Of a stretch of DNA of 64,000 bases, positions 3,789 to 62,000 are shown piece after piece (positions within the stretch are counted from its first letter, which is position 1; every line of letters starts with the position of its first letter). The stretch is from Octopus sinensis (Eukaryota). The position numbers were made by a program, and so were the translations under genes. The DNA lies in assembly GCF_006345805.1 (NCBI RefSeq), contig NC_043001.1, forward strand, positions 63,612,001 through 63,676,000. Reading direction: 5' to 3'. The notes under the pieces are model-generated. The model saw only the letters and a list, made by a program, of their open reading frames with translations. It made no database searches and was not told the origin of the DNA.

Positions 3789-6700
3789 TTACAGGCGAAA
3801 CCTCAGAATTGGTCCATTTACACTGGCCATTCTTGCACAATTCACCCACCTTTCAGAAAACTTGCTATCAGACAGCACTCTCCTCTCTAACCTCATCTTC
3901 CTTTTCAAGTGAAACTTGAAAAAGTTGATGAGGCCTTGACCAAAGTGGAAAGTGTCTGACTTTAGCCCTTTCAAACGGGTTCACCATACAACTTCTTTCG
4001 CCACAGCCACTAGGCACAGGAAAACGGCCTCGCCCTCCTTGTTAAAGAAGGTCGGCGGGGCAATCTTCACTATGGATTCAGCTGATAGCCGGATCCGTCC
4101 TATACGTGACAGTAGCTGTTCGACATAAACCCATAGTTCAGCAATACTCGGGCACTGGACGAGAGCGTGCAGAACGGTTTCGTCGTCCTGGCAACACCTC
4201 GGGCAGGCCCGGCTGACGGCACTTCCGTGCCGATAGAGTTTATCCCGAACAGGCAGAGCCCCTCGGTAGCACTGCCAGGCGAGCGACCTCTGGAAATTAT
4301 CCATTGGCCCCGGCCCGAAAGTCCTTCCAAACAGACCGCTCAGTTCGTTATCAACACCTAGAGTTTCCCCGAGAACGTCGTCGCATTTTTCCTCCACTAA
4401 ACCTCTATAGAACGCTAGAGTGGAACTAAACCGATCGCATTGCCCGCCTCGTGGAGGGCTGAGAGAGCTTGACGGCACTCGAGGTGCCAAGCGCCCTTTC
4501 TCGGTCTACGTTTGATCCAGGTCTGCAGCTGTGTCAAAGAGACGAGCTGAGGAAAGTCGCGTCTGACAAAAGACTGTCACACCTGTTCACCGTCTAGGAA
4601 GCGCTTGAGATGTCGCAGCCTGAGCGCATGTCTGCGCATCAGTAACCACGGCATGCCAAGGCCTCCGTTCAGCGGTCGTTGACAGCAGATGGATCGCCTG
4701 ACCAGTGGCACCTGACCCTTCCACAAAAAGTCGAAGAGCAGGCGTACCAGCTTGGCCAACCAGCGGTCGGGACAAGGGACGACGCTCAAGCGGTAATAGA
4801 TGACGGATGCGATGTAAGCATTCGCCACCTCCGCTCGACCTTTCAGGGACAGCTTCCTCTCGGCCCATTTCTGGGTGAGACGTGCCCCTCTGCTCGTCAC
4901 TTCTTCCCAATTTTTATCCACCTGGAGGTCCGGACCGAACCAGACCCCGAGCAGTTTGACGGGTCCGTCTGTCCAGCGCCCTACGACGCTGTTGGACGGC
5001 ATGGACTTGCCTCTCCAGGTGCCCAGTTGCAATTCCACAGACTTTTCCTCGTTAATCTTTGCCCCTGTCACCGCTTCGTACTCGTTTAGTATCTCGCCAA
5101 TCAGGTCAATGTGCCTGTGGCTCGACACCATCACGGTGACGTCGTCGGCATAGGCAGACACGCTGTTTCCGTCTCCTAGATCGCGCGGGATACCCCTCAA
5201 AGCTTCCAACTTGCGCAGTAATGGCTCCAGATTCAATATGTACAAGAGGGAGGAGAGAGGGTATCCTTGGCGGACAGAACGCGAGATGTCGAACGGTTCC
5301 GAAAGGTGACCGTTTACCCGTATCACCGAGCAGATGTTGTTGTATAAAGCAGCTATCCACCCGCGGAAGACTGGACCGAAGCCAGCTGCCTTGAGAACAG
5401 CTGCCAGGTACCGATGGTCGACCCTATCGAAGGCTTTACTCTGATCTAAATTTATCAAAGCCCCACCCGCGCCAGCATCGTTACCCACCCTCTCTATGAT
5501 GTAGCGCATGAGATGGAGGTTGTCGTGTATCGACCTGGTCGGCACGGTGCATGTCTGCGTCTTGCCAACCAGCTTGTCCACGATAAGCGCCAATCTCTCG
5601 GCTAGCACCTTGGCCAAAATCTTCAATTCTGCAATGAGCAGGGTGATGGGCTGAAAATTCCCTATAATGTCCCCCTTGTTTGGGTCCTTTTTTAGCAAAG
5701 CCACCACCCCTCGACAGACAAAAGCAGGAATTCTCCCGTTTTGCTGCCAGTTGCAGTAGACGTTTGCCAAGAGGCCCGCAAACAAGTCTGGCATTGAAGT
5801 GTAAAGCTCGTAGGGCAGACCATCCAAACCCGGCGATCTACATCTCGTGCAACTCTTCATTGCTTCCTCCACTTCCCAGGCAGATATCGGTCCTTCGCAG
5901 CACTCTGCCTCGCTGTCCGAGAGTTGCGGTAGACTGTCCAGGTACACACCGAAGTCTGTACCGCTGTCCGTTCCACCGCTCGTCCCAAACAGTTGAGCAA
6001 AGTGCCGCTGAAACACCGCACACATCTGCTTTGGTTCGGTAACCTCGCGCCCGTTCTGGTTCACCAAAGACCAAATGGTTGCTTTGTTGCCTCCGCCACG
6101 CGGGCCCATCGAGCGGCTCTAGTCCCTTCTCCGCTTAGCGAACGTGCCTTAGCTCTGACAACGCAGCCTTCGTGTTTGGTGTCAAAGTGTTGGTCGAGGG
6201 CCAGCCTTGCCGCCAACACGTCGGTCGCGATGCCAGTCTCAAGAGCCTTGTCTAGTTTCTTAACTAAATCCTGCTCTCTCTTCCTACGTTCAATAGCTAG
6301 AGTCTTACTATACCTAATCGACTCTACTCTAATTGCTCTCTTGAGGGCAAACAACCAGTTGTTGATGATTGCCCCCGTGAGCGCCCGTTTAACTAATAAA
6401 CTAATCCGGTCTCTGTAGGCTTTGCATGCCGTTAACGACGCGTTCAGCTTCCAGTAGCCGGGTCCCTGTCTATGTAGCCTATCTAAGTCGACCGTACAGA
6501 TCACGAATTTGTGGTCCGTGTAGTCGATTAGGTGGAATTGTGGGCACCCTATGCTGTCCTTATCCGCTGGCCTACAAAACACTCTAAGTACGATCTAGAC
6601 GACCCGATGCGATTGGTCCAAGTCCACATTGGCACATTCGGGTTGTCTAGTCGAAACCTGTCGGACACCTGAAAGCGCCCGAGTAGGTTGGCGAGGCTCT

Positions 6701-7179
6701 TGCACCCCCCTCTCCTATCAGATGCTCCCCTGCCCAACCGATCGAAACGTTCGTCTAAGACAGCGTTCCAATCCCCAACTAGCACTAGAGTGTATGATGT
6801 TCCCAGGAAAACTTCCAGACGTTTGAAATAATCCGACTGCCCTGCTCCTGTCGGAGCGTAGGCAGCCAGCAGTCTGAAAGCACCGCCGTCACTACCGTCA
6901 CTTACCTTCCGGATCCAAGAAGACTGTCCTTATTTTCAAGTCCAGGCCCTTCCGAAACAACACCGCAGTACCACCACCGCCCGCTCCCGGCCGGCATGGA
7001 GATAGAAAGATTTCGTATCCGCCGAAAAGGGCCACGAGTTCCTGCGGGTCGGAGAGCCTGGTTTCACTAATGGCTGCTACACCCACATCATGAAACCTCA
7101 GGTCGTTTAACAGGTGACCCTGTTTCCAAGGTGACCCGAGGCTTCTCACATTCAAGCAACCGATTCTAAGTTTTGCCAT
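3789..7179 (-). pseudogene. Tx1-A copy 2 ORF2 (APE endonuclease, RT, CCHC zinc finger), frameshifted
   Basis: Fragments 6898..7179, 6549..6785, 6061..6582, 4577..6109, 3981..4490 and 3789..3974. Motifs LDQSKAFDRVDH, QGYPLS, AYADDV and CPRC..ETVLHALVQCP. Small deletions relative to copy 1 at about 6085, 6585 and 6900. Confidence 0.92.
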
Positions 7180-7217
7180 GTTTCAAAGGTGACAAAAAAG
7201 AAAAGTAGAAAAAGGCT

Positions 7218-8999
7218 CTACTTAGTGTTGTTGGTTGTGGTGGTGGCTCCCTTGTGCTTTTGCACGGGTGTTTCTACAATATTTTTATAAAGTTTCTTTG
7301 AGAAACTTCTCCCTAGCGATCCGACATCGTTAGGGAATATCTGTTTTATGTTACTGTATATTTTTTGGTTAATTTTGATGGTGAGAATGTGTGCTGGTGG
7401 TGTGTTGTGTGTAGGTATTATGAAATCTGTAATGTTTGTACTTGTGTTGTCTTTTATATATGAAACGAGTTTTTCATTTTTTGTCTTTATGGCTGTAATC
7501 GTGTCTGTGTGTGTTGGTGTGTGTGGCAGTGGCAGTAGTGGTGTCGAAAGTGTTGTTGTTTGTTGTTGTGAGTGTGTTGTTGTTGATGTTGGGAAGCACT
7601 ATTTGTTCGTGCTTCCCCTGTGTGTCTTTTTTCTTCTTCCTCTTCTTCTTCGGAGGCACAGTGTGCCATTCACCTTCCTCGGTATCTGTGCTCGCACAAT
7701 CCGAGCTGTCCTGATCCGGAAAGGGGATGGCTGTCGGGTCCGCTTCAGCAGCAGGGCGAAAAATTGTTGGTTCTGCTGGTAGCGGTGGTGTTGCTGTATC
7801 TGTTGGTGATGGTGACGGTGTCGGTGATTCTTCTTCGTCCTTTTTTTGTTGTTGCTTTTCTTGGTGCTGGGGTTGGTGTTGGTTTGGTGGTTGTTGGAGG
7901 TGGTGTCGTTCGTCGTGGTGGTGGTGATGGTGTTGGTGGTGTGGCAGCCTTTGGTGTTTCTTGCTGTTGTTGTTTCTGTTGTTGTTGTTGTTGTTGTTGC
8001 TGCTGCTGCCTCTTGCCGTCTGCCTCCATTCTTTTTTTGTAAATGGGGCAGTCCCTTTTTAGGTGGCTTTCGCTGCTGCAGATGTAACATTTTGGCTTTC
8101 GCCCTCCACGGCAACGTGAAGCCTGGTGCCGTCCGGCAAATTTACCGAGTCAGGTATGGCATTAATGTTTTCCTGCTGGATTTGTACCAGCAGTTGAACT
8201 CCCGTATCTGACCAGTTTTTTCCTTCACTCTTCGTATATCTAGAATAGTGGCAGTGTCCTCTATGTCATAGAGGACAGCCGCCACCAGCCATGATATATT
8301 TAGTTCGGGGGGTACTATGTCGATTTTTACTTTTTCGACCCTCCGCCCGAGGTATGTTAGAACAAGAAACAAATTTTCATTTTGCAAGGGCGAAATGGCA
8401 TGCGCCCTAGCATCCTCCTCTGTTGGGAAGCGAACCTCCACGGTTCCGAAACGCTTCCCTCTGGTGACATAGCTCTTTTTGCCCCATATGGGCTTCAGAG
8501 CTATTTCCAATTGTTGGGGTATTGCGTTGATTAGTCTTTTGTTTTTCTTGTCGAAAACCTTGTAAAATATTGTCTTCTTGTTTGTGTCATGTATGAGTTG
8601 TTGAGGTGTATTGAGGAAAACACTGTTTCCCTCTTTTCTCAACAACTCCTTTGCGCTTTTTATTTGGTCCATCGTAACTTTTACTTCCTCCGAGTTTTCT
8701 TTTGCAGCGGAGGCGAAATTGCTACGATGGCTTGTTGTGTTGTTGCTGGTGGTGGTGTCGGTGTGGCTGCTGGTCATTTTCTTTCCTTCTTTCTCCGGTA
8801 CTGGAGCACTGGTGGAGGGAAGAGAAGGAAAATCTTCGTTGACGTCAAAGGTGACGCCATCGTTGTCGCTTTTCTTTGCAACGCTCTTTCTTCCGTCCTT
8901 CTCCAGTACTGGAGCACTGGTGGAGGGAAGAGAAGGAAAATCTTTGATGACGTCAAAGGTGACACCATCGTTGTCACTTTTCTTTGGAACGTTTTGCAT
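7218..8999 (-). pseudogene. Tx1-A copy 2 ORF1, frameshifted
   Basis: 8142..8999 plus downstream fragments align with copy 1 ORF1 (LKPIW, GTVEVRFPTEE, WLVAAVLYDIED, knuckle, polyQ, QGKHEQIV). Confidence 0.85.
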
Positions 9000-10439: not shown

Positions 10440-10890
10440 TAATATCAATAGCTTTCTGAGAGTTTCACATTCTTTCTTTAAATGATCCTTATACACGAAA
10501 GCATGCACATTTCACGCTGGTGTGAGATCGCACCAGCGTGCCCATGTGGGTAAGGCATACATGAACTATGAGAATTTTCATCCGGATGACCAGTTTCTGT
10601 CAAAAACCTGCAGGTCACTTGAAGGATTGAAGAGGCACTTGGACATTCATATAAACAAACGGAAAGTGGAGTCAATGCTGAAGTGAGATATTGCTGCAGT
10701 ATATGTAATCAGCTCTTCATACAACTTTCAGTGCCCAAAAGTCATTTGAGATCTCACGCGAGCAAAGAGCAATTATAGGTACAACAAGAAGTCGAGCTCT
10801 GCAAGTAGCATACAACCACTATGTATGTATGTATGTATGTATGTATGTATGTATGTATGTATGTATGTATGCATGTATGTTTGTATGTAA
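10440..10890 (+). mobile_element. Decayed RTE-like LINE 3' end with C2H2 fingers and a (TGTA)n tail
   Basis: Translates to (D)QF(L)SKTCRSLEGLKRHLDIH and CSICNQLFIQLSVPKSHLRSH (C-x2-C-x12-H-x3-H spacing), then a stop, a short UTR and (ATGT)n. Same layout as 44357-44828. Confidence 0.55.
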
Positions 10891-12320: not shown

Positions 12321-15097
12321 TTGCTACTGAGCAACAAAAAGAAAGCAAAAATACTCCGCAAATATAACATCACAGAAAAAGATTTACCTGAGATAAAAGA
12401 AAAGCTGAAGCATGATATCCTTGCTAAAGCACAAAGGGTCCGCCGGTACGAGAAACGCCAGTGCTTCTTTGAACAAAACAAAAAGTTCAACTCCAACCCA
12501 AAAAGTTCTACCAAGAACTTGGCAAAAATAAAAATAAAATAGAAATCACTGCAGTATCAACGGCAGAAGAAGTGGAAGAATTCTGGAGAGAAATATGGTC
12601 GGCGAACGAACAAACAAAAAAAAAGAAGTATCAAAACAACAAACTCAGCATCTGAGCAACTTTGGACCCCCATAACAACTGAAGAGGTCACCCAGGCACT
12701 GCAAAGACTAAGCAACTGGAAGGCACCTGGGCATAACAAGATCCCCAACTTCTGGTTGAAATATCTAACAGGAATGCACAAAAAGCTGGCTGAAAACTTT
12801 AACAGCATGCTAGCAGAGCCAGAGACAATGCCTGAATGGCTCACGAAGGGGAAAACCATCTTAATTCCCAAATCAAATGAGACAGCAAAACCAGAAAACT
12901 ACAGACCAATAACCTGTCTCCCTACAATATACAAGGCACTTACTGCAGTGATATCGCAAAGGCTGAACAAGCACCTGGACGAAAACAACCTGTTTCCAGA
13001 AGACCAGAAAGAATGCCGCAAAGGCTCATATGGCTGTAAAGATCAACTAATGATTAATAAAGCCATAACTGAAGACAGCCACAGAAAGAAGAAAGGCCTC
13101 AGTATGGCCTGGATGGATTACAAAAAGGTGTTTGATAGCATCCCCCACACATGGATCCTCGAAACACTAGCCATTAACAAAGTAGCACCAACACATATAA
13201 AATTCATAGGGCACTCTATGAATAAATGGCAAACCGTGCTACAGCGCCAAAAAAAAGAGGGACTCATGAAAACCAAAGTCATCCCCATCAGAAGAGGAAT
13301 ATTCCAGGGAGACACTCTCTCTCCACTCCTTTTCTGCTTGGCACTGTCACCTCTATCTGATATGCTAAATAGAACTGGATGCGGATATAAATGTTACGGC
13401 AAAACGATCTGCCACCTTTTATATATGGATGACCTAAAACTATACGCTGCAAATGACAAACAGCTGGAAACACTATTAAAGACAGTTCATGGATTTACCA
13501 AAGAAATAGAAATGAAATTTGGATTAGAAAAATGCGCCAAGGTAACCATGAAAAGAGGAAAACTAGTTAAGAGTAGTAACATCACACTAGATAAACCAAT
13601 GAAATAAAAGAATTAGACCAAAGCCAAACTTACAAATACGTAGGAATCCATGAACTAGATAAGACACAACACACACACATGAATGAGAAAATATAAAAAG
13701 AATATTATAGACGAGTTAGATCAATACTAAAAACAGAGCTCAATGCTAAAAACAAGATAATAGGTATTAACACTTTAGCTGTCCCAGTTATAAGTTACAG
13801 CTACAATATCCTTAACTGGACACGAAATGAACTGACCAAAATAGATAGGAAAACAAGAAAAATAATGACAGGATCTAGGATGCATCACCCAAAATCTGAC
13901 ATAGAAAGACTATATATACAACGTATAGAAGGTGGTAGAGGCCTTATACAGCTGGAAAACTACTATAAAATAACCACCATAGGACTGCAAAAATATCTAC
14001 TTCAGAAGGAAGGAAAACTGATACAAATAGCGGCAAAACACGAGCAAAACAAAAAACTGTTCTCAGTATTTAAGGAAGCTGACAAATACAAACAAGAAAT
14101 CATACCACCTAATAAATATGAAGAAGAAGAAGAAGAAGAAAATGAAGAAACAACAAAAGCTATAAAACAAATGAAATCCAAACTAAAAATAGAACAGCAA
14201 CGAACCATGATAAAACGATGGCAAGAAAAGCCCCTTCATGGTAAATACTGGACTAAACTAAACGCAAAAGAAATAGACAAAGAAAAATCCCAGCAATGGT
14301 TGAGAAGCTCAGGACTCAAAGCAGAGACAGAGGGATTTTTAATTGCAGCACAAGACTAAAGCCTCCCCACCAGAAATTACCAAAAACATGTAATGAAAAG
14401 AAATATAACAAGTAACTGCAGAATATGAGATGGACAAGAAACAATAAATCATATTATCTCTAGCTGCCCAGTCCTAGCTAAGAAGGAATATATTCACAGA
14501 CATGACAGAGTTGGAACCTACATACACTGGAAGCTATGCCAACATTATGGAATAACAACAGAAAAAAGATGGTATAGGCACACACCAGAAAAGGTCACAG
14601 AAAACGAGAAAGCAACCATACTCTGGGATATGCCGATACACACAGATAGAGAAATTAAGGCCAACAGACCAGATATAGTTGTCAGAGATCATGAAGAAAA
14701 AAAATACTTTCTAATTGATGTATCAATACCGGCAGATGACAACGTGTCTCTAACAGAAATGGAGAAACTTTCAAAATACAAAGACCTGGAAATAGAGGTA
14801 ACCAGAATGTGGAATCTAAAAGCAGAAACAATTCCTGTCATAGTAGGTGCCATAGGCATGATAAAAAAATATTCATGATAAAAAATATTCAGACAAATAC
14901 ATAACAAAAACACTAGGACTTACAAACACATATAACATACAGAATATTGCACTACTAGGCACTGCACACATCCTACGCAGAACACTTTCCATACAATAAC
15001 CATCAGAGCATCACAACAAATCACAGCACATACCTAAGGCACACAGAGCTGCGCTCGGTAGTGAAGTGAAAGCACGCTATAAAACTAAAACTACTGA
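12321..15097 (+). mobile_element. R4/Dong-like RLE LINE, family A, copy 1 (5'-truncated, frameshifted)
   Basis: RT motifs ENYRPITCL, GIFQGDTLSPLLF and HLLYMDDLKLY; zinc-knuckle region; RHD; endonuclease RPDIVV..LIDVSIP..EKLSKY. 3' UTR ends AAAACTACTGA. The 5' flank is (AAT)n. Confidence 0.93.
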
Positions 15098-15148
<51 letters not shown>

Positions 15149-31538: not shown

Positions 31539-31542
<4 letters not shown>

Positions 31543-33234
31543 TAGTTTTATTTTTATAGCGTGCTTTCACTTCACTACCGAGCACAGCTCTGTGTGCCTT
31601 GGGTATGTGCTGTGATTTGTTGTGATGCTCTAATGGTTATTGTATGGAAAGTGTTCTGCGTAGGATGTGTGCAGTGCCTAGTAGTGCAATTTTCTGTATG
31701 TTATATGTGTTTGTTATATGTGTATGTTATATGTGTATGTTATGTATTTGTCTGAATATTTTTTTATCATGCCTAATGCACCTACTATGATAGGAATTGT
31801 TTCTGTTTTCAGATTCCACATTCTAGTTACCTCTATTTCCAGGTCTTTGTATTTTGAGAGTTTCTCCATTTCTTTTAGAGGCACGTTGTCATCTGCCGGT
31901 ATTGATACATCAATTAGAAAGCATTTTTTTTCTTCGTGATCTCTGACAACTATATCTGGTCTGTTGGCCTTAATTTCTCTATCTGTGTGTATCGGCATAT
32001 CCCAGAGTATGGTTGCTTTCTCGTTTTCTGTGACCTTTTCTGGCGTGTGCCTATACCATCTTTTTTCTGTTGTTATTCCATAATGTTGGCAGAGCTTCCA
32101 ATGTATGTAGGTTCCAACTCTGTCATGTCTGTGAATATATTCCTTCTTAGCCAAGACTGGGCAGCTAGAGTTAATATGATTTATTGTTTCTTGTCCATCT
32201 CCACATATTCTGCAGTTACTTGTAATATTTCTTTTCATTACATGTTTTTGGTAATTTCTGGTGGGGAGGCTTTGGTCTTGTGCTGCAATTAAAAATCCCT
32301 CTGTCTCTGCTTTGAGTCCTGAGCTTCTCAACCATTGCTGGGATTTTTCTTTGTCTATTTCTTTTGCGTTTAGTTTAGTGCAGTATTTACCATGAAGGGG
32401 CTTTTCTTGCCATCGTTTTATCATGGTTCGTTGCTGTTCTATTTTTAGTTTGGATTTCATTTGTTTTATAGCTTTTGTTGTTTCTTCATCTTCTTCTTCT
32501 TCTTCATGTTTATTAGGTGGTATGATTTCTTGTTTGTATTTGTCAGCTTCCTTAAATACTGAGAACAGTTTTTTGTTTTGCTCGTGTTTTGCCGCCATCT
32601 GGATCAGTTTTCCTTCCTTCTGAAGTAGATATTTTTGCAGTCCTATGGTGGTTATTTTATAGTAGTTTTCCAGCTGTATAAGGCCTCTACCACCTTCTAT
32701 ACGTTGTATATATAGTCTTTCTATGTCAGATTTTGGGTGATGCATCCTAGATCCTGTCATTATTTTTCTTGTTTTCCTATCTATTTTGGTCAGTTCATTT
32801 CGTGTCCAGTTAAGGATATTGTAGCTGTAACTTATAACTGGGATAGCTAAAGTGTTGATACCTATTATCTTGTTTTTAGCATTGAGCTCTGTGTTTAGTA
32901 TTGATCTAACTCGTCTATAATATTCTTTTTTTATTTTCTCTTTCATTTGTGTGTGTTGTGTCTTATCTAGTTCATGGATTCCTAAGTATTTGTAAGTTTG
33001 GCTTTGGTCTAATTCTTTTATTTCATTGGTTTTATCTAGTGTGATGTTGTTACTCTTAACTAGTTTTCCTCTTTTCATGGTTACTTTGGCGCATTTTTCT
33101 AATCCAAATTTCATATCTATTTCTTTGGTAAATCCATGAACTGTCTTTAATAGTGTTTCCAGCTGTTTGTCATTTGCAGCGTATAGTTTTAGGGCATCCA
33201 TATATAAAAGGTGGCTGATCGTTTTGCCGTAACA

Positions 33235-33237
<3 letters not shown>
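31539..33237 (-). mobile_element. R4/Dong-like family A 3' half (copy 3), long open frame, YMDD mutated to YMDA
   Basis: ORF 31714..33483, whose real part starts at KCYGKT. Motifs CRICGDGQETINHINSSCP, RHD and RPDIVV..LIDVSIP. Flanked by (TAT)n on both sides; near-identical to 13387-15097 in the opposite orientation. Confidence 0.95.
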
Positions 33238-38309: not shown

Positions 38310-38419
38310 TTATTTGATAAAAGTTTGATTCAGCTCCATGCATCTTAAAGTGTGCTGAGTGTCACCATCTTTCTTTTGTTCACTCATATATATATATTTA
38401 TGTGTATGTGTATTTATGT

Positions 38420-41400
38420 CTGTCATTATTCAGTTTCATTTCAAGATTTCCTGCCAATAGAGAAAGGGTCAGTTTCTAACCTAGATTCAAGGCTCCTTCA
38501 TTGGAATTTCAACATCAACAACAGGATATTTTCGATTGTACATATGAATATGTGTAGATTTGTATGTTTTGCTTTATCTATGTATTCTCATGCATATAGT
38601 TGCATATCTAGACATGCTCATATATATTTAAATGATAAACTACTGAAAAGTTATACAGATTTTTACAGTTCCAGTGATGGATTGGATCTGTAGTCTTCAA
38701 ATTAGCTTTCTCCTTTCTGAATTTGAGAAGCCTAATTTCTCAAGATTGATATTTAGGCAGTGTATTACATATAAACTAGAACTTGTAATCTGGACAGAGT
38801 AACGGCAGATTTATCAATAGTTCAGCGTAGGTATTCTCTTTTTCACTGATCTTCAGCTTTATGTTACCATCTGCTGAGCTGCTAATTTTCACAACAGTGT
38901 ACAGTTTCTCTTCGCTATCCCAAATCATTATACCAGGTATTGAGGTCTTCACTGATGTATTCTACCAGTACTCCTTTTCATCATGTGTGGCCATGGGTTC
39001 TACCATACTGTGGGTTCTTATTTCTTTGTCCTCGGGGTTATCCTTCCGACGGATTTCATTTTAGAGAGTCCTAGGTAGAACAGCATATCTCATCGATAGA
39101 TAATACCGTGATGACATTTCTGGACAACTGCTTATGATGTGGGTGATATCTTCGGTGTTAACTCCACAAAGAATGCATCGGTTGTCACATTTTACTGCTT
39201 TTCCTGCATCTCTATCCCTTTTGGGCATCAGGTACTTGGTTGATATTTCCTGTTCCTGGATTGCAAACGCATACTCTTCAAAGTGGGATGTAGTAATACG
39301 GTTATTGGTCCATGATAAACTGCTTTGATGATTAATGTTACTATCATCTCGGAGCTTTCTACTAACATATCCAGGTATAGTCTTCTGCTCATATAGGCTC
39401 ATCCTTTCATCTGGTGATACGTTGTAGTAGAGTCGTGCGACATTTTTGGGCATGTACTCTAGGTTATCAGACAAAGAATGTTGCTCAAAGAGTTGCCTTC
39501 CAAGTCTTATGATGTTATCAGCCTCTTGTATGCAAACTTGGTCAAGGGATGCACTTCGATACTTGGTGGTTAAAAGAGGTTGCCGAAGGGATATGATACG
39601 ACATTCAAAGGCATTTTGGATCGATGTTAAGCCTCAGCCGCCTTGTTTTCGTTTTATGTAGAGGCGGTCTACGTCACTGTTTATGTGGAAATTACGTGTG
39701 TTTGTTAGTATTTTTCGTGTTTTCACATCAATAGCTCGAATCTCATCAAGCGTCCAATCAAGTAGCCCAAATGTTGGTATGAGTACTGGCACTACAAACA
39801 CATTGTGAGCCACTGTTTTATTGAATGCAGAGAGTTTTGAGGTCCAAATTTTCTTTATTCGGCTGTAATATTCTGTAGTGACACGTGTTTTGTTACAAGT
39901 GCCATTATAAGATATGTTTCCATCCAACCCTAGATGCCTGTAACATTCCTCGTCAGATATAAGGGAAACAATCAAATCATTGATGGAGATGTTACTAGTC
40001 TGGCTTATAGTTTTACTCCTTTTCACAACCATATAACAACATTTTTCCTGACCAAACAAACTCCAACCCTACATCCTTTGAGAATTTTGTAACTAGGTCA
40101 AGGCTCTTTTTCATCTCATGCATATTCTTCCCATAAAGTTTCAAGTCATCCACAAAGAAACAGTGGATACCGCGATACCGCACGCTTAGGTTCATTCTTT
40201 CGATTTCGGGCACGGTAGGGCGGCGGAGCAACGGGCGACCGGCGCAGGCCTGGCGCAGACCTGGCGCAGGCCTGCCGCTACCTCGTGCTAGCCGCAGTTG
40301 TCATCTTTCGGGATTTTACGGGACGGACCACGTCGCCGTATCGACCGCGTATATCTCGTGAACGCCTTCCGGCACAGAGACGCTGTGCCCTTGGAATATA
40401 CCTTTGCGATACTGTATTCTATCAGTGATGTCACTCTTTGTGCTTAGTTTCAAGATGGTGGCCCGCAATAAAGTCAGGTCAGTTATGGCTTTGACTATGC
40501 TCACTGGAACTTCAGCAAATTCAATGGATTCTAGCATCCATAAGTAGGGAACAGAGTCAAAGGCTTTCTTGTAGTCTAGCCACACTGAAACTAAGTTCCT
40601 CCTATGCTCTCGCACCTCTGACATCACAGTTTTGTTGATTAACAGTTGCTTGGCACATCCCCAAACTCCCTTCTTCCCAGCTACTTGTTAGATGATGTTA
40701 TTGGTTTAAGGCAGCGAGCTGGCAGAAACGTTAGCACGCCGGACGAAATGCTTAACCGTATTTCGTCTGCCGCTACGTTCTAAGTTCAAATTCTGCCGAG
40801 GTCGACTTAGCCTTTTATCCTTTCGGGGTCGATTAAATAAGTACCAGTTATGCACTGGGGTCGATGTAATCGACTTAATTCCTTGTTTGTCCCCTCTATA
40901 TTTAGCCCCCTGTGGGCAATAAAGAAATAGATGTTATTGGTTTTACAATGAAGTAAGAGGTTTAAACATACTGTATATATCATATACATTAAGTTTTGGC
41001 ATGCAATTGACCGGTAGTTTTTTGCCATGTGGGTGGTTCTGCATTTGGGGATCAATTTTGTCTCTGCCAGAGCTAACCAGTGTGGTATGCTACTGCTCTC
41101 AATGTGAGCTTGCTGGTACATATTGATAAGATATGGTCGGTAGAAGGTTAGCTTCTTGTACCAATATCCGACAATCAAGTCTCTTCCAGGTGCTTTTACA
41201 TCCTGAAGTTTCTGGATCACAGTTGCAATAGTTTCACCGTCGATGTTGTATGTCTTGGGTGTAACGCAGGAGAAATAACTTCTTCGGATTTCTTCCAGCC
41301 ACAGAGCATCTAGGTTAAACTCCTTCTCTTCACTCCAGATTGTCTTCCAGTAGGAATCTATGAGTTCTCATGAAAGAGCTTCTGTGATGTTCACTGCTCC

Positions 41401-42745
41401 TCCTCTCATGTCTCTACATACGGCTGCCTGGTTCCGGTTAAAGTTTTTGTTTATTGTTCTTCTCTCAGTTATTCTCTTCTGATGTCGAAATTTTTCACCG
41501 ACAACTCCTGCTTGAGGGTAATCAGTTTGCAAGTGTGTTCTCTTTTTGCTGTCTCCAAACATCATTTCTATCACTTTTACTTTCTATTGGTGAGACGTAT
41601 AGTGATTTGCTTGTTTGCACGCAATGAGCATCATCACATGGCTGATGGTCTTCCGTAAACCAGTTATCTTTTTCTCTGTCTTCAAAACCCATGATTGTAC
41701 TTTCTTTGTATGTTTGGTTTTGTTTACTCTTTGAATGTCATTCATGTACTGCTTTGCAGTAGTAGCCAGAGTATATAGACAGGCGTTAATCTGCCAGAAT
41801 GTGGGTTCATCACACTGCTGTAAATATTCATCACTAATTTCGTTAACAGCTTTTAATACCGTATCTGGTGTTTTTTTTTACTTACTTTGGTAGAGAATAC
41901 TCTCTCCTCGAGAGAGTACTTCAAAGCCAAAGTTAATTTTTCTCGGAAAATTTCAGTAAGGGGACATTTCACTGATATATGATCCTGACTACCACTACTA
42001 TTACAATAATCGTTGCGGTTGTGCCTGCTATTTACCATAGTCGTAGTAGGTGAACAATGGTCAGTTACTTGAGCCAGTAATGTAACTTGGCTGGCAGGCA
42101 CTACGGAATCTGTTGGAATGTTGCTAGCCGCGAAACCTCATAGTGGTCTTACATCATTCACGTTCTCGTTTTTGTTTATGGGGCTGGGAAGAAGGTTAAG
42201 TTTTGATTTTTTAATAAAGTTACAATCACTAACCTTCTCCCTATGTTCTACAATTGTTGCTTGTTGGCGTAGTTGCTTCGCAGTAAAATGATTTAATTCT
42301 GGATGCAGTTCGTCCCAATATGATTTCAATTAATTCATATAGCCAACAGCAGGGTTTTGTTTCGCTTTTTCGTAGCAGTTAAAAAGCTAAGTATTCAATT
42401 CATAACTCCAAGAGAAATGAGTTTTTAATTAGGGTTTCTTCTATAACTAAGCTAGAAAGAATTTGTCAACCTGTTGTGCTGTTTATTTTTCGTTCTGTTC
42501 CTCGGCTGTGTTGTTGTTGATGTCGTGTCCAGCCATATTGCTTGTAGTAACTCTCTACATGCTAAATTCAAGTTTCAGTCGATAATCCTTGCAATCATGT
42601 ATAAAAGGCTCCCTCAGTTAGTTCATCTGAAGATTAACCAATTATTTAACAAGACTGATAGTTGTGGCTCCAAAGTTGGAGATAGTATTAATCGTATTTC
42701 CGATAAATATTTTCCCACGCCAAATACGCGACTTGTCGCTTCGAG
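38420..42745 (-). mobile_element. RLE LINE (R4-like), family D, near full length, decayed
   Basis: WDELHPE..LRQQA, KAPGRD, NYRSIACQN, WLDYKKAFDSVP, GIFQG, FVDDLKLY, AIQEQEI, CILC..HIISSCP and a C-terminus GTVKIC. The 3' UTR ends at a (CATA/CA) tract. Confidence 0.85.
40708..40929 (+). mobile_element. Full-length tRNA-derived SINE (type-I tail) with a 14-bp TSD, nested in LINE D
   Basis: A-box-like TGGCAGAAACGTTAG and B box GTTCAAATTC. The central block GCCTTTTATCCTTTCGGGGTCGATTAAATAAGTACCAG resembles, from memory, a Meta/MESC-type SINE domain. TSD GATGTTATTGGTTT at 40694-40707 and 40930-40943. Confidence 0.92.
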
Positions 42746-42833
42746 TTCGTGTGTATGTATTTATATATGTTTGTATGTATGTATGTATGTATGTATGTAT
42801 GTATGTATGTATGTATGTATGTATGTATGTATA

Positions 42834-42870
<37 letters not shown>

Positions 42871-42892
42871 GTGTGTGTGTATGTATGTATGT

Positions 42893-43361
42893 CTCTTTTA
42901 TATTTAATCAATTTAAGTTCTTTCTCTGAAGAAGGAGCTTGTTTCTAACAAAGATACAAAGCTCCAGCTTAGGAATGTAGATACCGAAAACAATGTCACA
43001 TTCTCAACCTGAGAAAACCCCTGCATAATTTTACTGTTCCACTTACAGATTTGTTTGTAATGTGCGAATCAGCTGGTTGATTTCTGATTTTTGAAAATTC
43101 AACCTGATCCAGACTGACATTTGAGCAGTTACTTACAGTACCAAGTACTCTAATTATTATTGGTGTAAATGTAAATTTATAATCTGAATATAAAAGCTGG
43201 AGGTTTCGAAGTAGTTGTCCATAGTTATCATCTTTCACTTTGAATTTCAATATCAGCAGGATGTGACGGTAACATACTCTGTGACGGTACATACTTTTGT
43301 CTGTCCCAAGCAACAATATCCAGCCTGTTATGCCTACACTTGAGAGATCCTTTGATGGGAA
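42893..43361 (-). mobile_element. Family-D-like RLE LINE 3' fragment inside (ATGT)n
   Basis: KDDNYGQLLRNLQLLYSDYKF..PIII..GTVKLCRGFL, with a UTR hairpin GGAGCT..AGCTCC. (ATGT)n lies on both sides. Confidence 0.75.
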
Positions 43362-43701
43362 TGTATGTATGTATGTATGTATGTATGTATGTATGTATGT
43401 ATGTATGTATGTATGTATGTATGTATGTATGTATGTATGTATATACCTAAAATGAAATTATTAACTATTATAGTTCGATGTCATTAACAATGATGTTTCA
43501 ATGTTTTAGACGACAATACTCAGAAAGCTAAAATTACAAATGAAAAATGGCGTGAAATTAGCGGTGAAGGTAAATACAAAGGTCGGTATTTCAAGAATTT
43601 ATAAATGTCTATAGAATATTTCTGTGAAGTCATTTAGCCTCTATTGGTTTGCCTCGTAGCATCAAAGGCTAATAATTGATTTTATATTCAACTTATTCCA
43701 G

Positions 43702-43759
43702 TGGTGAGACGAATTGCGAGAGGAGCTGTTGGAGAAATGATCAAGATGGATTGTCCAGG
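43702..43759 (+). CDS. FAM187A: Host-gene exon (58 nt, phase 1-2): VRRIARGAVGEMIKMDCPG, start of an Ig domain
   Basis: TTATTCCAG acceptor and GTATGT donor. Supplies the B-strand Cys and splices in frame to 50126. The symbol rests on remembered similarity only. Confidence 0.75.
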
Positions 43760-44133
43760 GTATGTACACCACTTAGAAGGACTCACATCTTTTCATTTCT
43801 ATTAAATACATGAAGAAAATAGCAATAATATTTATAAAATTAGATATTTTAGGGTATATTGAGGACAGAGTTTTCATGTAATGGACATGACCTTTCTATA
43901 TAGTATAGGGTAATTATTCATAAAATCTTGACACTGAGTTACACCGCATAATCCTCTACTTCGGGTGCAAAACTTTTATTTATCCAAACTTCAATATTTC
44001 GTATAATTTTGTTTTGCGGATCTGTAACACCATTCTACTTATGTGTGTGTATATATATATATATATGTATGTATGTATGTATGTATATACCTAAAATGAA
44101 ATTATTAACTATTATAGTTATATATATATATGC

Positions 44134-44175
<42 letters not shown>

Positions 44176-44356
44176 GAGCAGAGAGAGATTTGCTTGTTTA
44201 TTTTTACGAATTTGTCACAAATAGAGAGTCCCGTTCCTAGGAGAGAAACAAGACTCTTTCATATGAATTTAGACATCAATCAGGGTTAGTTTTGTATGTA
44301 TGTATGTATGTATGTATGTATGTATGTATGTATTTATGTATGCATGTATGTATGTA

Positions 44357-44828
44357 GGCCACGTTTGAGAAATCTCGAGTTGCACATGAGAAAGTAAGGA
44401 GGGATGTCAGGAATGGCATCGCTGTAACACTTCCAGAAGGGAAGGGTCTTCCTTTGATTCTGATATGCAATGTCTGTGCAAGACCCTGCCTCAGTAAAGC
44501 TGGACTCATGAGTCATCTTCGTAGTCATAAAACGAGACAGATGAGTGACAACCTGGCCACTGGTGGTGGCGTAACACACCATACTAATCATATCTGTCGG
44601 GTATGTGGAAGAGAATATAATTCAGCTGGAGGGCTTAAACGACATGCAAAGGTACATGAAGCCCAGTTACAACTACAGACGGCTATTACCAGTAAAGGTT
44701 TTAGTTGCCAATTTTGTACAAGACATTTTACATTTTTAGCTGGGCTAAAAAGTCACATTCGATCACAGCACCAGTAACAGTTAAGCTTCGTGCAATGGCC
44801 ATACTCGATAACGAGGGGGCAGCCATAA
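44357..44828 (+). mobile_element. RTE-like LINE 3' fragment encoding three C2H2 zinc fingers
   Basis: Open frame 44358-44777: ATFEKSRVAHEKVRRDVR..CNVCARPCLSKAGLMSHLRSH..CRVC..HAKVH..CQFC..HIRSQH. A 50-nt UTR with stem-loop CTCG-ATAA-CGAG follows, then a (TGTA)n tail. No splice sites or TGEKP linkers. Confidence 0.7.
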
Positions 44829-45099
44829 TGTATGTATGTATGTATGTATGTATGTATGTATGTATGTATGTATGTATGTATGTATGTATGTATGTATGTA
44901 TGTATGTATGCATGCATATATGTATGTATGTATCTATGTGTGTGTATGTATGTATGTATGTATGTATGTATGTATGTATGTATGTATGTATGTATGTATG
45001 CATGCATGCATGCATGTATGTTATGTATGTATGCATTTATGTACACAGATATGCATAAATATATATACATATTTTTGTTTACTCGCAGACGTGGATGCA

Positions 45100-45420
45100 A
45101 GTAAAGAAGTCATTGCATATGTGGATTTTATTACGCTAAACTTCTTGAATGTTTTACATATTTTGACACTACTTTTGATAGTTTGTAGCTATAGTCTTTC
45201 TGATTTTGTGAAACCCAGTTTCTCAAGCTAGGTACTGAGGCAGTTCGTTATGTAACCAACTACTCTAGTATTATCAGTAGAAATCTTGTTTTGGCCTGGA
45301 CGGAGACCAGTAGAATTCTCAGCAGTTCTGCGTAAATGTTCTTTTTTGCACAGATCTTCAGCATTATATTTATATCTGCAGATATCGAAAATAAATTTGC
45401 GGCAGTAAATGCTATTGACA
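45100..45420 (-). mobile_element. Old family-D-like LINE 3' remnant
   Basis: SADINIMLKICAKKNIYAELLR aligns with SADGNIKLKISEKENTYAELL at about 38820-38880. It lies next to (ATGT)n at 44828-45060. Confidence 0.55.
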
Positions 45421-47773
45421 ATATATGGAAATGAAAAATAACTTTACAAACCCTATACGAGATCATAAATAAACACATATCTGGAAAAAATGTCAAAGAT
45501 TTTCTTTGTGAATATCAACTGCATCTAAGATTTTAAAGGATAACCAAATATATTTGTGAATGTATTAGGCTTTCAGTATTATTCCTCACATTGAAAAGCA
45601 TTTGTCTACACGGATAACTTAGCAAATAAAACGATTAAATATGCCAATTACGCAAGTTGTCGCCTGTACTAAAGCCTTATCTATTTTTAAGAAGCTTAAA
45701 GACAAGAACGAAAACACGGCTATGAGGTAACATTTACTGCAAGCTCGTTGGTGGCAAAATGTAAAACTACAGCTGAAACTAACCGTTGATGTTAAATCAA
45801 TAAAATTTATTTTATTCAAAGAAATAAATCCAAGGGCACTTAAAGGTCTTGTATATACTTCAAGACATGTAGAAAATAAAAGAAAATGATTGAACATTCG
45901 TTTCACATTATTTTGAACTTGGATTTTTAAAAATATTGTTCATGTTATACATCGTGTAGAATGTAGATTAACACCAGCAATCTGTACATCATTACCATCT
46001 AAATGTTAGATTAATGTTTGTGCTATCAGATATACGTTACTTTGACGACTAATAGACCATAGTGCTTAGTATCATTTAAAGAATATTATCTTTGGCACAC
46101 ATTTGATCTATACATAAATGCTATTGATAAAGTGATGGGCGGTTACGATACTGAAAGGATTTCGGGAATCCTTCAAAAGAGCATGGAACAAATTACCGAA
46201 AAAAATATTGGAGAGTTTGAGAATAAACTCTGTCCTCTTTAATTTATCAACAATTTTAGAGGATTTGAAGAAACATTAGAGATTGTTCTAAATAAAACAG
46301 AACTGATCGTTGATGTCATTAATACCCAATTGTACATTAATATTTCTACGAATGACATAAAGTGTCTGTTTCAGTCACGAAGCCAATGTGACACAAATGA
46401 AGACTTCAAAGAAATGAAAAGACATATGGAAACTAAAGAAAATCTAACAATCGAAACTTTATTCTTTTATTCTTCTAAGGGCGCGAAAATCATTTAAGAT
46501 TTAAGAAATCTAAGGGCGCGAAAATCATTGAAAATTTTCGTGCCCTTCAGAATTTCGAACGAATTTGAAAAGGTGATTCAGACCTACATAAATTACAGAT
46601 TTGCTATCGTGAAATTTATAAGGAAAAAGCTGTCATGGAAGTTAGACAAATACAAGCTACATGAAGCCAAACGAAACGGTAAAACAATATTGAGAGGGGG
46701 AAAATGTTTGTGCCATTTGATTGTTTATTATTTATAAACGTGTATAGTATACGTAAAAAGTGACAAGGTATATTTCTTTCACATTTTAGTAATTCTTAAT
46801 TTCATTTCTAATTCAAGTTTTACTCCATAATTTTTTTCGTTTCATTTTGTCATTTTACTGTTATTCTTATTTTTTTCTACCTCCAGACTTGCTCGTGTTT
46901 CTTCTTGAGTTGTAGTTTTGTTGCAGTTTTTTATCACTTCTCTCCAGTTCACATTAATCAGGGATTTCTTCCAATAATAATCTTCGTTTTAGTTTTGAAT
47001 TCGAAGTCGATCAGTTTCTTTATTATTAATAACTTCATCGTCTGCTTCACTTGCAAATTACCTTTTCTGTATTTGAAAAATCGGCGCTTTTGCTTCCTTA
47101 CTCTTACGCTCTCATTCCTTCACTCTCTACTCATTCACTTCGTTATTTCTTCTCTCTATTTATCTATCAACGTACTCAGATATATGTATATACACACATA
47201 TAAACACACACATATACATATAGTTCCCTCTCTTATTTCTCCCAATCAGAAATTGCGGTGTCTTCTCTTCATTTTTCAACGTATCTCTTTTCTCTACTTT
47301 TCAATATCATGTACAAAATTCCTTCTCGCTTTCTATCGTTTACATTCTTTCTATCATTTGCTCACTCTCAATAATTCTGTTATTTTATCCCGTCGCCTCT
47401 TTATTTCCACTTCTCAAGTATACGAATATCCAGCTCTATCTTTCTTTTCTCCATTTCTCCTTTTTTTTTATAAAAAACACTTTATTACGTATTCTATCTT
47501 CTGCTCTCCTTCTCCCTTTAATCCTTCCCTACATTTCAGTGTCTATTCCAGGTAAGAAGGAAAAAACGGATATAGTAAGAAAGCCACCAAATAACTGCGT
47601 AGAGTGGCATACTAACACTTCCCAACTTCCAAGTCTTGCGGCAGACCACTTCAGAACGAGATCTCCGCGCAGAAACAGGGTTACTGCTTGCAACTATAAA
47701 TTGAAGGGAGTGGTGGTGGTCCTGATCACAGAGGAAAGTGATCGCAGAGTGTAAGCAACGAAAGGTAGACAAA

Positions 47774-53721: not shown

Positions 53722-54961
53722 GGGATCTTTTCTATTTTGAGGCCAGTTTTTTCAAATTTTTTCCTACTGAACCAAACAATTTGAAACTTCGTATACTGGT
53801 AGAATGTGTCAAAAGTAAACTTAATTGTAAACCAGAATGAAAACGGAATTGTAACTTCTAAGTTTAACGTTGTTTAATAATTAGAATTTTAACCAATGAT
53901 ATTCCGTCATTCGGCTTTATTTTATTTACTCCGTCTCGACCACCAATTTCGTGACGTATTTAACATCTTAAATGTAAACAAGTCAGCCACCTTCTAATAA
54001 CAATATTTAAAACTAGTTAATAAGCCACATGTATTAAATTGAAAATGTTTCCATTCTGTATGTCTGCATGTATGTGTGTGTGTATGTATGTGTAAGTATG
54101 TGTGTGTGTGTATGTATGTGTGTGTGTGTATGTATGTATAGCCGATTCATCGTAATCGTAATTACGATGAATTGGCCATACATACATAGATACATACACA
54201 CACACACATACATGCAGACATACATATACACATACACCGAGTAAAAAATTTCAGTTATCTCTCTCTTTCACACATTACTCTCTCTGTCTCTTCACACACA
54301 CTAACAGAAGCACTTCACTTGCACAACATACTGTCTCCCACACCCCATCAAACACACACACACACACACTAACAGAAGCACTTCACTTACACAACATACT
54401 GTCTCCCACACCCCATCAAACACACACACACACACACACATGTACATCAATGCTTCCCCTAGACGGTAACTTCAAAGACAAATTTCCCTCGTCATAAAAT
54501 CGCTTCCTCTTAGTCTCTTTCGCTCTCATTACTTATGTAAAAAAATAAAAGTTTTTTACGGAAATCGACGGAAAACTTGTGCTACGACAAGCGAAACTTC
54601 GCCGAAATTTAATATTAAAAAAGCAAAGAGCTGGCAGAAACGTTAGCACGCCGGGCGAAATGCGTAGCCGTATTTCGTCTGCCGTGTTTGTTTACAGTTT
54701 TCCGAACGTTAGTACGTCACAAAAGCGCTTTCTACGTCACACTAATAGAATGCAGTCAAGTTTTACACATGAAAACAAACAATCTGATTGGTTAAAATTC
54801 GCAGTTTTAATCTACGATTAAAGTCATAAAATAGATTTTTCTCAAATAAACTAGTTCCAACCTGTGTCTTGTTTTGCTAGACTCTATCAGCATACGAAGT
54901 TTCAGATTATTTAGTTAAGTAGAAAGATCTGTGGTCCTGGCTTCAGAATAGAAAAGATCCC
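53722..54961. mobile_element. Non-autonomous DNA transposon (MITE-like, 1240 bp) with GGG..CCC ends and a 6-bp TSD
   Basis: TIR GGGATCTTTTCTATTYTGARGCCAG. TSD AGTTCT at 53716-53721 and 54962-54967. Patchy inverted similarity extends about 260 bp. Contains a SINE head (54627-54684) and an approximately 68-bp tandem duplication (54293-54440). Confidence 0.85.
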
Positions 54962-60873: not shown

Positions 60874-60934
<61 letters not shown>

Positions 60935-60935
<1 letters not shown>

Positions 60936-62000
60936 CCACCAAAGAAATAAACATGAAATTTGCCTTAGAAAAATGTATCAAAACAACCTTGAAAAGAGGA
61001 AAACTAGTTAAGAGTAACAATATCACACTAGATAAAGCAAATGAAATAAGAGAATTAGACCAAAGCTAAACATACAAATACTTAGAAATCAATGAACTAA
61101 ATACGACACAACATACACATATGAAAGATAAGATAAGAAAGGAATACTATATGCGAGTTTGATTAATACTGAAAACAGAGCTCAATGCGAAAAACAAGAT
61201 AATAGGTATCAACACTCTAGCCGTCCGAGTTAGAAGTTACAGCTACAATATTCTTAACTGGAATCTAAATGAACTAATCAAAATAGAGAGGAAAACAAGA
61301 AAAATAATGAGAGGCTTTAGGATGCACCACCCAAAATCTGACATAGAAAGATTATATAAACAGCGTATCGAAGGTGGTAGAGGCCTTATACAGCTAGAAA
61401 ACTATTACAAAATAACCACCGCCGGACTAACGAAATATCTACTTCAGAAACAAGGAAAACTAATATAAATAGCCACAAAACACGAACAAAACAAAAATAT
61501 TTTGAAGTCTTTAAGGAAGCTGACAAATACAAAAAAGAAGTCATAGTACCTAACAACTATGAAGAGAGAGAAGAAACAGCAAAAGCTGTAAAATACTGAA
61601 ATCCAAACTAAAACTGGAACAGCAACGGATCATGATAGAACAATGGCAAGAAAAGCCCCTACATGGCAAATATTGGGTTAAAGAAATAGACAAAGCAAAA
61701 TCCCAACAATGGCTGAGAAGCTCGGGGTTCAAAGTAGAGACTAAAGGATTTTTAATTGCAGCACAAGATCAAAGCCTCTCCACCAAAAATCACCAAAATC
61801 ACGTAATGAAAAGAAATACAAGTAACTGCAGAATATGTGGTGATGGAGAAGAAACAATAAGCTATATTGTCTCTAGCTGCCCAGTCTTGGCTAAGAAGGA
61901 ATATATTCACAGACACGACAGAGTTGGGACCTATATACACTGGACGTTATGCCAACACTAAGGAATAACAACAGAAAAAAGATGGTATAGGCATACGCCA
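60935..62000 (+). mobile_element. R4/Dong-like family A internal fragment (copy 4, more diverged)
   Basis: MKFALEKC, MHHPKSDIERLY, WQEKPLHGKY, CRICGDGEET and RHD; collinear with 13495-14585. Confidence 0.9.

Follow-up and report, generated by a model that had tools for sequence, protein, structure and literature searches.

A lineage of R4/Dong-like RLE LINEs, here called D, is tied to (ACAT)n at both ends and on one strand in the Octopus sinensis genome, while the Dong-type family A stays with (AAT)n. An earlier note on this DNA had proposed such a separate lineage. The families D1 and D2 lie in (ACAT)n in a single orientation, probably because the encoded protein bound ACAT repeats that were already there through a predicted Myb-like domain and then carried out target-primed reverse transcription (TPRT). 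Since D copies carry ACAT in one orientation and intact relatives border (ACTT)n, the lineage likely aims at four-letter repeats.

The window, the whole stretch of 64,000 nucleotides that was analysed, contains three D insertions, D1, D2 and D3, rather than the four pieces previously counted, two of which are joined as D3 by a paralogous locus, L332. D1 (38425..42745, minus strand) is a decayed full-length single-ORF element with many stops and a longest frame of 190 aa. Its reading as a minus-strand RLE LINE was borne out by the motifs DYKKAFD (40576), FVDD (40156), CCHC (39177) and GTVKIC (38672), and its layout runs from a predicted Myb-like N-terminus through RT, CCHC and a PD-(D/E)xK-type endonuclease to the 3' UTR, which in other copies carries an internal ACAT tract. 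The predicted Myb/SANT-like three-helix domain was placed at 42216..42419 (minus strand) by tblastn with residues 14-81 of the intact relative L234 and by alignment, the structure model being that of the L234 domain; the predicted helix 3 reads KQLRQQA in the window copy. D1 has received two later inserts. One is a short interspersed repeat, presumably SINE-like (40708..40930, minus strand), which matches several other copies in the window and is missing from other D1 copies; the other is a GC-rich segment in the RT region (40166..40372), where other full-length copies show a gap (query 2379-2585). A degenerate ACAT-like run (38399..38424, minus strand) was read at the 3' junction.

The (ACAT)n tract at 42752..42892 (minus strand) is at once the 5' flank of D1 and the 3' flank of D2, and the two are stacked insertions within one microsatellite. 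D2 (42905..43360, minus strand) is a 5'-truncated copy of a sister family, with GTVKLC at 43040, and a perfect (ACAT)20 was read at its 5' junction (43361..43442, minus strand); the earlier description of a truncated relative with the repeat on both sides was correct. This junction coincides with an ACAT present at the same position in other D2 copies, a case of microhomology. D3 (45044..45420, minus strand) is an older 5'-truncated piece of the lineage comprising the endonuclease end and the proximal UTR, and comparison with L332 identified its distal 3' UTR at 44190..44292 (minus strand). Because L332, a 91-94% paralogue of the locus, has no RTE fragment and preserves the UTR order, 45420-45044 and 44292-44190 represent one copy split by an RTE fragment. 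It follows that the (ATGT)n tracts on the 5' (44293..44356, plus strand) and 3' (44828..45043, plus strand) sides of that fragment are together the internal UTR tract of D3 and the landing site of the RTE element; the paralogous empty site in L332 contains the tract, and the longest ACAT-type tract of the locus is this one, within D3's own UTR. The fragment (44357..44826, plus strand, opposite to D3) is the 3' end of a young, 5'-truncated APE-type LINE with C2H2 fingers. Its family has a frame of 1022 aa with Exo_endo_phos and RVT_1 and a TAA 3' tail, and we take it to belong to the RTE clade from its architecture rather than from a tree with named references.

Several features first ascribed to all D pieces held for D1 and D2 only. 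The shared UTR motif GGAGC..GTTAGAAAC was present at 38496 (D1) and 42965 (D2) and absent elsewhere in the window, including 44190-44290 and 45100-45420, and the C-terminus GTVKIC/GTVKLC is replaced in the D3 piece at 45100-45420 by SSVKICKTF. Likewise, D1 and D2 adjoin ACAT, the 3' flank of D1 being merely degenerate, but the true 3' end of D3 adjoins (CT)n and its 5' boundary is without ACAT, which was found at one of three D3-type starts. The (AAT)n noted at other RLE ends was confirmed at 12324, 18509, 31540, 33237 and 37500, as was (GAT)n at 15098, and one exception was added, (TAG)n upstream of 60938.

The exact 31-mer at the D1 3' end occurred 807 times in the genome (391 plus, 416 minus; control 0). 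The first 90 of 100 listed places were sampled, all on two contigs and tilted toward well-preserved 3' ends. Five were dropped (a duplicate, a place with an N gap, a full-length copy and two mis-chained ones). Setting aside 20 further copies truncated 3' of the internal tract left 65 for the 5' count. In that count sense ACAT was scored when at least two units lay within 30 bp upstream. It was found upstream of 43 of the 65 truncated copies and antisense ACAT upstream of one. Among 8041 background 30-bp windows, 172 contained the repeat in sense and 177 in antisense orientation, about 2% per strand. Sense ACAT was present at 20 of 27 full-length 5' ends (antisense 0/27) and on the D1 3' side at 57/89 (antisense 3/89), a fraction based on 89 copies out of the 807 ends. 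D2 gave 14/26 sense and 1/26 antisense at 5' ends, 12/29 and 1/29 at 3' ends, and ACAT at seven of the eight D2-type full-length starts that were located; AAT was seen at 0/65 D1 and 0/26 D2 5' junctions. Both families thus have the target repeat on both sides, 5'-truncated copies included. A LINE has been regarded as target-specific when more than 20% of flanks share the target (PMC4494074), a share exceeded on both sides of D1 and of D2. The earlier note would have abandoned its proposal had enrichment been missing among D copies or had the repeat been nothing but a tail of the element's own making; neither was observed.

The ACAT signal falls off with distance from the D1 junction, and repeats 20-40 bp away are more frequent upstream (33 of 65) than downstream (15 of 65; p=0.003). 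Specificity, although evident genome-wide, is relaxed at 3' ends, where eight (AC)n and two (ACAG)n starts were seen among 89. Two perfect units were absent upstream of 22/65 truncated copies and from the first 16 bp of 38/89 3' ends, which is assumed to reflect decay or relaxed specificity. All scored D copies are decayed, with median pairwise identities of 88.7% (D1) and 84.0% (D2), and no intact copy was present among the scored matches of three protein searches of the genome (at least 150, 83 and 61 listed; one search used a stricter prefilter). Flank joining over 1.48 Mb gave microsatellite matches only and no empty site for D in unique DNA.

Family A served as a control. Its young copy in the window (31540..33237, minus strand) has (AAT)n on both sides, and the family showed (AAT)n at 8/10 5' ends and 30/30 3' ends, with no ACAT. 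The D1 terminus resembles that of family A, a likeness absent from D2 and from the ACTT elements. The RTE family has the same repeat as D on the opposite strand (ATGT), again in a two-sided pattern. Several abundant LINE families of this genome thus differ in the kind of microsatellite they occupy and in its strand. The partition of microsatellites among LINE lineages is not exclusive, since the younger RTE family shares the ACAT niche on the other strand.

D elements have the single ORF, RT, CCHC knuckle and C-terminal PD..D/E endonuclease of RLE-type non-LTR elements. Genome copies carry the motif HNRPDI..EISCP, and the lineage profile matches R2 structures from the RT to the C-terminus. With a single ORF, an RLE and no Exo_endo_phos match, the lineage is not a Waldo-type APE element with a separate ORF1. 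An N-terminal CxxC..H..H was absent from L234 and from genome D1 and D2 copies, with no Pfam zinc finger there. In RT trees, D grouped apart, its long stem supported by an SH-aLRT of 100, and was nested among RTs including family A and insect homologues; these trees carry SH-aLRT support only, have long outgroups and include no named Dong, R4, Rex6, HERO or NeSL sequence. D is far nearer to family A (31% identity over 1062 columns) than to R2 (phmmer, 103 bits with an intact D relative). Judged by sequence, D is probably a distinct R4/Dong-like clade. Assignment to Dong in the narrow sense was rejected, as the lineage lacks the (TAA)n target and AAT is absent at D1 and D2 5' junctions. Among the papers that literature searches listed, none described an RLE element with ACAT or ACTT as its target; Repbase, Fell 2025 or paper supplements may already record it.

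Intact relatives of 1150-1200 aa were recovered from marine samples. They border (ACTT)n at six ends, at five of seven loci and at both ends in L234, so ACAT is not a fixed target of the lineage. Two assemblies, which may represent a single host, supplied the ACTT loci, at roughly one contig for each family. These elements occur in marine metagenomes and in two coded organisms, and no RNA data set is recorded among their sources. An intact D relative ORF (1148 aa) matched RVT_1 and, weakly, zf-RVT. Contigs aligned to L234 added one loose ACTT end and no other junction, and a search of genome contigs and viral contigs yielded no further flanked relatives. Matches in a protein atlas were RT clusters with taxa mostly unrecorded.

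The N-terminal model of L234 is a three-helix bundle (pLDDT 80.5). Myb/SANT folds were among its top structural matches (Zeste, Z 5.7, rmsd 2.6 over 65 residues; TRF1, Z 5.1), below the trust level of the tool; Foldseek at E<=0.001 and Pfam gave no match for this domain. With phmmer, the D N-terminus matched Dong-type N-termini weakly (E 3e-4 and 6e-4). An N-terminal SYRRNRxY arm and the helix-3 motif set D apart from Dong and R4/Dong elements. The helix-3 motif is LRQQ..F in ACAT families and LRD[QH]..[RS] in ACTT elements, a comparison of one pair of clades; the homologues P0058, P0061 and P0144 are likewise of the LRQQ..F type. A young Argonauta hians family, whose members GAB1597890.1, GAB1602388.1, GAB1598957.1 and GAB1605922.1 are 94-99% alike, has LNEQ..R, compared with LRDQ..R of the ACTT type. 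Speculatively, the predicted helix-3 difference could act as a specificity switch between ACAT and ACTT.

By analogy with R2 and Dong, the D protein would bind existing ACAT upstream of the cut via helix 3 of the predicted Myb-like domain. The ATGT strand would be nicked, the RNA copied at the nick by TPRT, and the short 3' repeat could be made by duplicating the target or by a short tail on the RNA. R2Bm needs the upstream DNA to which ZnF/Myb binds and can do without the downstream DNA (PMC10499050).

A different and rather improbable account holds that the RNA is the guide, a read-through (ACAU)n tail pairing with the ATGT strand that was nicked in loose cutting and thereby selecting the places where priming works, while the protein is barely sequence-selective. 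Pairing between tail and target has been proposed for RTE, R1 and R2Ol (PMC6007223), the first 20 bp downstream of D1 are rich in ACAT (41/65) before it drops to 18/65, as a short tail would leave, and the step between ACTT and ACAT, a single base, would come easily. A tail would pair at the nick alone, however, and the repeat reaches farther upstream than downstream; the 3' junctions of loci L143 and L159 begin with (AC)n or (ACAG)n though their 5' side is ACAT; and the helix-3 motif varies with the target. Protein targeting and RNA guidance may also act together.

That the elements made the repeat themselves, by a self-made tail, template jumps or later expansion of a seed, with no preference for existing microsatellites, is very unlikely. 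D1 and D3 do carry internal 3' UTR (ACAT)n, the D2 junction in the window lies at an internal ACAT microhomology, and the age of the copies implied by their identities leaves time for tract growth. Yet D1 truncation points are scattered across the 3' 2.7 kb, and a 3' tail cannot explain sense ACAT upstream of them. Template jumps predict another D 3' end upstream, and one was found within 400 bp in only 4 of the 43 ACAT-flanked truncated D1 copies. At locus L094 a full-length D1 is nested within a second D1 copy, in the tract internal to that copy's UTR; the larger part of the tract lies on the 5' side of the insert, and here the host copy had the tract beforehand. Family A, which is young, and the RTE family are two-sided as well. 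Passive accumulation, that is, random insertion followed by survival in microsatellite-rich regions, as suggested for Drosophila Waldo-A/B (PMC3812793), could draw on the common ACAT background. The 43-to-1 strand bias and the family-specific repeats (AAT in family A, ATGT in RTE, ACAT in D) rule it out in practice, the decay of the signal with distance also speaks against it, and we give it next to no credence.

Protein targeting of four-letter repeats remains our preferred reading, and a broader one is conceivable, if doubtful: an unnamed, widespread R4/Dong sub-clade may specialise in tetranucleotides and be re-aimed by one or two helix-3 residues in its one Myb-like domain (LRQQ..F for ACAT, LRDQ..R for ACTT, LNEQ..R in Argonauta hians), the niche of the dead ACAT families having later been occupied by the young RTE family on the opposite strand. 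If true, nature would provide a code by which retrotransposons choose their targets, and intact enzymes would be available for it. RLE elements are under development as gene-insertion tools, and it is not yet understood how site-specific LINEs move from one target to another. Because the relatives' targets lie one base apart, the candidate domain is minimal and intact ORFs exist, the roles of the Myb helix, the endonuclease and the RNA tail are directly testable. What is probably new is the ACAT/ACTT target; the principle that LINEs target microsatellites is unchanged.

Among known systems, R2Bm offers the parallel for the proposed mechanism, with TPRT and with helix 3 of Myb occupying the major groove on the upstream side of the nick (PMC10499050); R2 differs in targeting rDNA and in carrying zinc fingers at its N-terminus. 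Waldo (WaldoAg1, WaldoAg2 and WaldoFs1) shares the repeat class, ACAY, but is an unrelated, convergent R1-clade element with an APE-type endonuclease (PMC3812793). The crocodilian Tx1 families with (TTCC)n/(TTTC)n, together with Kibi (TC)n and Koshi (TTC)n, likewise include tetranucleotide specificities and changes of the repeat unit inside one lineage, but are APE-type members of the Tx1 clade (PMC4494074). Togen, with (TG)n, and some HERO families are, like D, RLE LINEs with a non-TAA microsatellite specificity; Togen differs in its dinucleotide target and its position near NeSL/HERO in PMC4640811; our tree includes neither HERO nor Togen. A likeness in architecture links D to Dong and R4/Dong elements, which target (TAA)n in the case of Dong and for which a Myb/SANT-like domain at the N-terminus was reported earlier (PMC7998251, PMC3812793). 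D shares with them a single ORF with RT and RLE, the lack of an N-terminal zinc finger and a two-sided microsatellite, may share the Myb/SANT-like domain, and differs from Dong in that its target is a tetranucleotide, ACAT in D and ACTT in its relatives.

In the window (G000:C5:63612001-63676000, from an assembly of 2.72 Gb), six-frame motifs bore out the full-length minus-strand RLE LINE, D1, at 38425-42745, and placed a second minus-strand copy, D2, at 42905-43360, with a second C-terminus at 43040. D2 carries (ACAT)n on both flanks, and the tract adjoining it at 42752-42892 doubles as the 5' flank of D1. An older minus-strand copy, D3, was recognised through its paralogue L332, which aligns with the surrounding DNA at 91-94% identity. 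In L332 the D3 UTR is collinear and is not interrupted by the plus-strand fragment that the window has at 44357-44826; 45100-45420 and 44190-44290 are therefore parts of one interrupted copy and not the separate pieces described in the earlier note. The window thus holds three D insertions, two with ACAT at true ends. The claim that D pieces adjoin ATGT-type tracts held for both sides of D2 and the 5' flank of D1, but not for the true 3' end of D3, which adjoins (CT)n, or the 3' flank of the window D1, which is merely degenerate ACAT-like sequence. The GGAGC.. UTR motif, thought common to all D pieces, was found in the window at 38496 and 42965 only. Other RLE ends adjoin (AAT)n with one (GAT)n exception, as had been proposed, and with one further exception: a piece of family A, the Dong-type control, at 60880-60938 has (TAG)n upstream instead.

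Several other features of the window were recorded. The stretch 44144-46900 is a segmental paralogue of L332/L424 (G000:C9:20.78 Mb; 91-94%) in which later inserts differ; the paralogue has an insert of about 370 bp with inverted ends in its D3 UTR, matching window 54218-54574. An 80-bp local duplication (43396-43475 and 44040-44119; 92.5%) ends in an ACAT tract, and the (ACAT)n tract at 10820-10889 has no adjoining RLE element by tblastn. A 2.9-kb duplication (3-2905 and 5696-8564; 87%) lies beside an RT-bearing ORF at 4577-6118, which we take to be Tx1-like. The last 20 bases of D1 (38425-38445) resemble those of family A (31540-31560), AATAAAACT..GAATAAT, despite distant proteins; these terminal bases were not found in D2 or ACTT elements.

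A D1 probe, a 31-mer ending before the tail, gave 807 genome matches, of which the first 90 of 100 listed places, all on contigs C1 and C2, were sampled; 5' junctions were located against repeat-masked full-length copies. L148 (duplicate), L162 (N gap), L151 (full-length), and L164 and L182 (mis-chained) were dropped, and a further 20, whose truncation points lie 3' of the internal UTR tract, were set aside, leaving 65. Among these copies from the first 90 listed, two or more sense ACAT units lay within 30 bp upstream of the truncated 5' junction in 43/65 and antisense units in 1/65, compared with 172/8041 and 177/8041 background windows, and the signal fell off with distance. The predicted flank enrichment and strand bias were thereby confirmed, and the strand-specific tetranucleotide preference of the D lineage, an R4/Dong-like sub-clade, is real. 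Counting against the ACAT reading, 22 of the 65 truncated copies in this sample of the first 90 lack the upstream repeat. Downstream flanks in the same 90 showed sense ACAT in 57/89 and antisense in 3/89, the first bases being ACAT in 51/89, mixed variants in 13, (AC)n in 8, (ACAG)n in 2 and other sequence in 15. Sense ACAT was also present at 20/27 full-length D1 5' ends (29 non-self loci minus two duplicates; antisense 0), 14/26 D2 5' junctions (antisense 1) and 12/29 D2 3' ends (antisense 1). ACAT was found at 7 of 8 located D2-type full-length starts (9 tried), four of these starts being linked to D2 3' ends, and at 1/3 D3-type starts.

We consider it likely that D proteins direct recognition of pre-existing repeats: the protein would recognise a repeat already present at the target, and TPRT would follow. 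The main rival, that pairing of the RNA tail selects the site (described in the available part of PMC6007223), may also contribute. A self-made tail cannot account for ACAT upstream of D1 truncation points spread over 2.7 kb. L094, a full-length D1, is inserted within the internal UTR tract of another D1, so that tract is older than the insertion. Template jumping is disfavoured, the D 3' end it would place upstream being present in 4/43. Flank joining over 1.48 Mb found no empty site for a D insertion in unique DNA. The repeat that D1 targets also occurs in its own 3' UTR, where D1 copies or pieces of UTR are found nested or repeated (L094, L150, L151, L197).

Recognition of existing repeats by the D protein would involve the conserved domain of about 75 residues with which the ORF begins. 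It is modelled as a three-helix bundle whose best structural matches, including Zeste, GT-1, Sap1 and TRF1, are weak (Z 5.1-5.7); Foldseek and Pfam searches of the domain added nothing to a Myb-like assignment. ACAT is longer upstream than downstream of D1 (median score 17 vs 10, p=0.006), and repeats 20-40 bp from the junction occur upstream in 33/65 and downstream in 15/65 (p=0.003; first 90 of 100 listed). This upstream bias fits R2Bm, in which, according to the portion of PMC10499050 available, Myb helix 3 occupies the major groove on the upstream side of the nick, and no downstream DNA is needed. A Myb/SANT-like N-terminus proposed to direct insertion is reported for R4/Dong in part of PMC7998251.

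Two control families were compared. Family A had AAT at 8/10 5' junctions and 30/30 3' ends, sets that include the window copy and one pair sharing a junction, and showed no ACAT. The other family, represented in the window by the plus-strand fragment at 44357-44826, encodes APE and RT domains, an architecture from which we presume it to be RTE-type. On its own sense strand this family has ATGT at 15/21 5' junctions and 26/30 3' ends, and thus uses the D repeat from the opposite strand; the empty paralogous site of one copy already contains the tract. The family (L258-L287, L426) is young, one copy having a 1022-aa open frame. Median pairwise identity among best-scoring copies was 88.7% for D1, 84.0% for D2, 97.5% for RTE and 99.8% for A, and no D match scored in three protein searches was intact, all being broken or partial.

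D homologues at 39-45% identity led to more than 100 further homologues and seven marine metagenome loci, three with open frames of 1153-1202 aa. (ACTT)n adjoins six ends in 5/7 marine loci, drawn from two assemblies and possibly one host; both ends of L234 carry it, and the flanks of L235 and L237 have none. L231-L236 come from a marine eukaryote and make up four or more families of intact D-lineage elements flanked by (ACTT)n, and the 3' tract of L233 changes gradually from ACTT through ACTG to ACGG. Over 1062 aligned columns L234 shares 31% identity with family A; its similarity to R2 is far lower. The D lineage had an SH-aLRT of 100 in both RT-region trees (41/70 rows; a clade of 20/145 rows), which include no named reference. 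Outgroups were long branches. Genome D1 and D2 were sisters (98 and 95); a separate clade (99) in the 145-row tree held the (AAT)n families. The three 5'-end types of the O. sinensis genome all have KQLRQQA[ST]F as helix 3, the LRQQ type having been predicted for D2 in advance, and the helix is K[KN]LRD[QH]..[RS] in L231, L234, L235 and L236; as the O. sinensis families are one clade, this counts as a single contrast. A young D-lineage family in Argonauta hians (P0370, P0541-P0543; members 94-99% alike) has a third type, KHLNEQAKR. ACTT is a second target in relatives, and the helix-3 difference is a testable candidate for the switch.

Abundant octopus LINEs include Dong-R4 and RTE, as stated in the available parts of PMC13282606, PMC10294476 and PMC9115989. 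Our literature search turned up no RLE element described as targeting ACAT or ACTT; Repbase and supplements lay outside its scope, so an earlier record is possible, and the portions available of PMC7650587, PMC5035012, PMC13586686 and PMC13580325 make no mention of one. In the excerpts available, Dong targets (TAA)n and Waldo ACAY (PMC3812793), Togen and some HERO families lie at (TG)n and at microsatellites, respectively (PMC4640811), and Tx1 families lie at (TTCC)n/(TTTC)n (PMC4494074). Beside these known microsatellite-targeting LINEs, the D lineage places a tetranucleotide preference in an R4/Dong-like sub-clade, and the RTE-type family, in (ATGT)n at both ends, is a finding in its own right as a microsatellite-targeting RTE.
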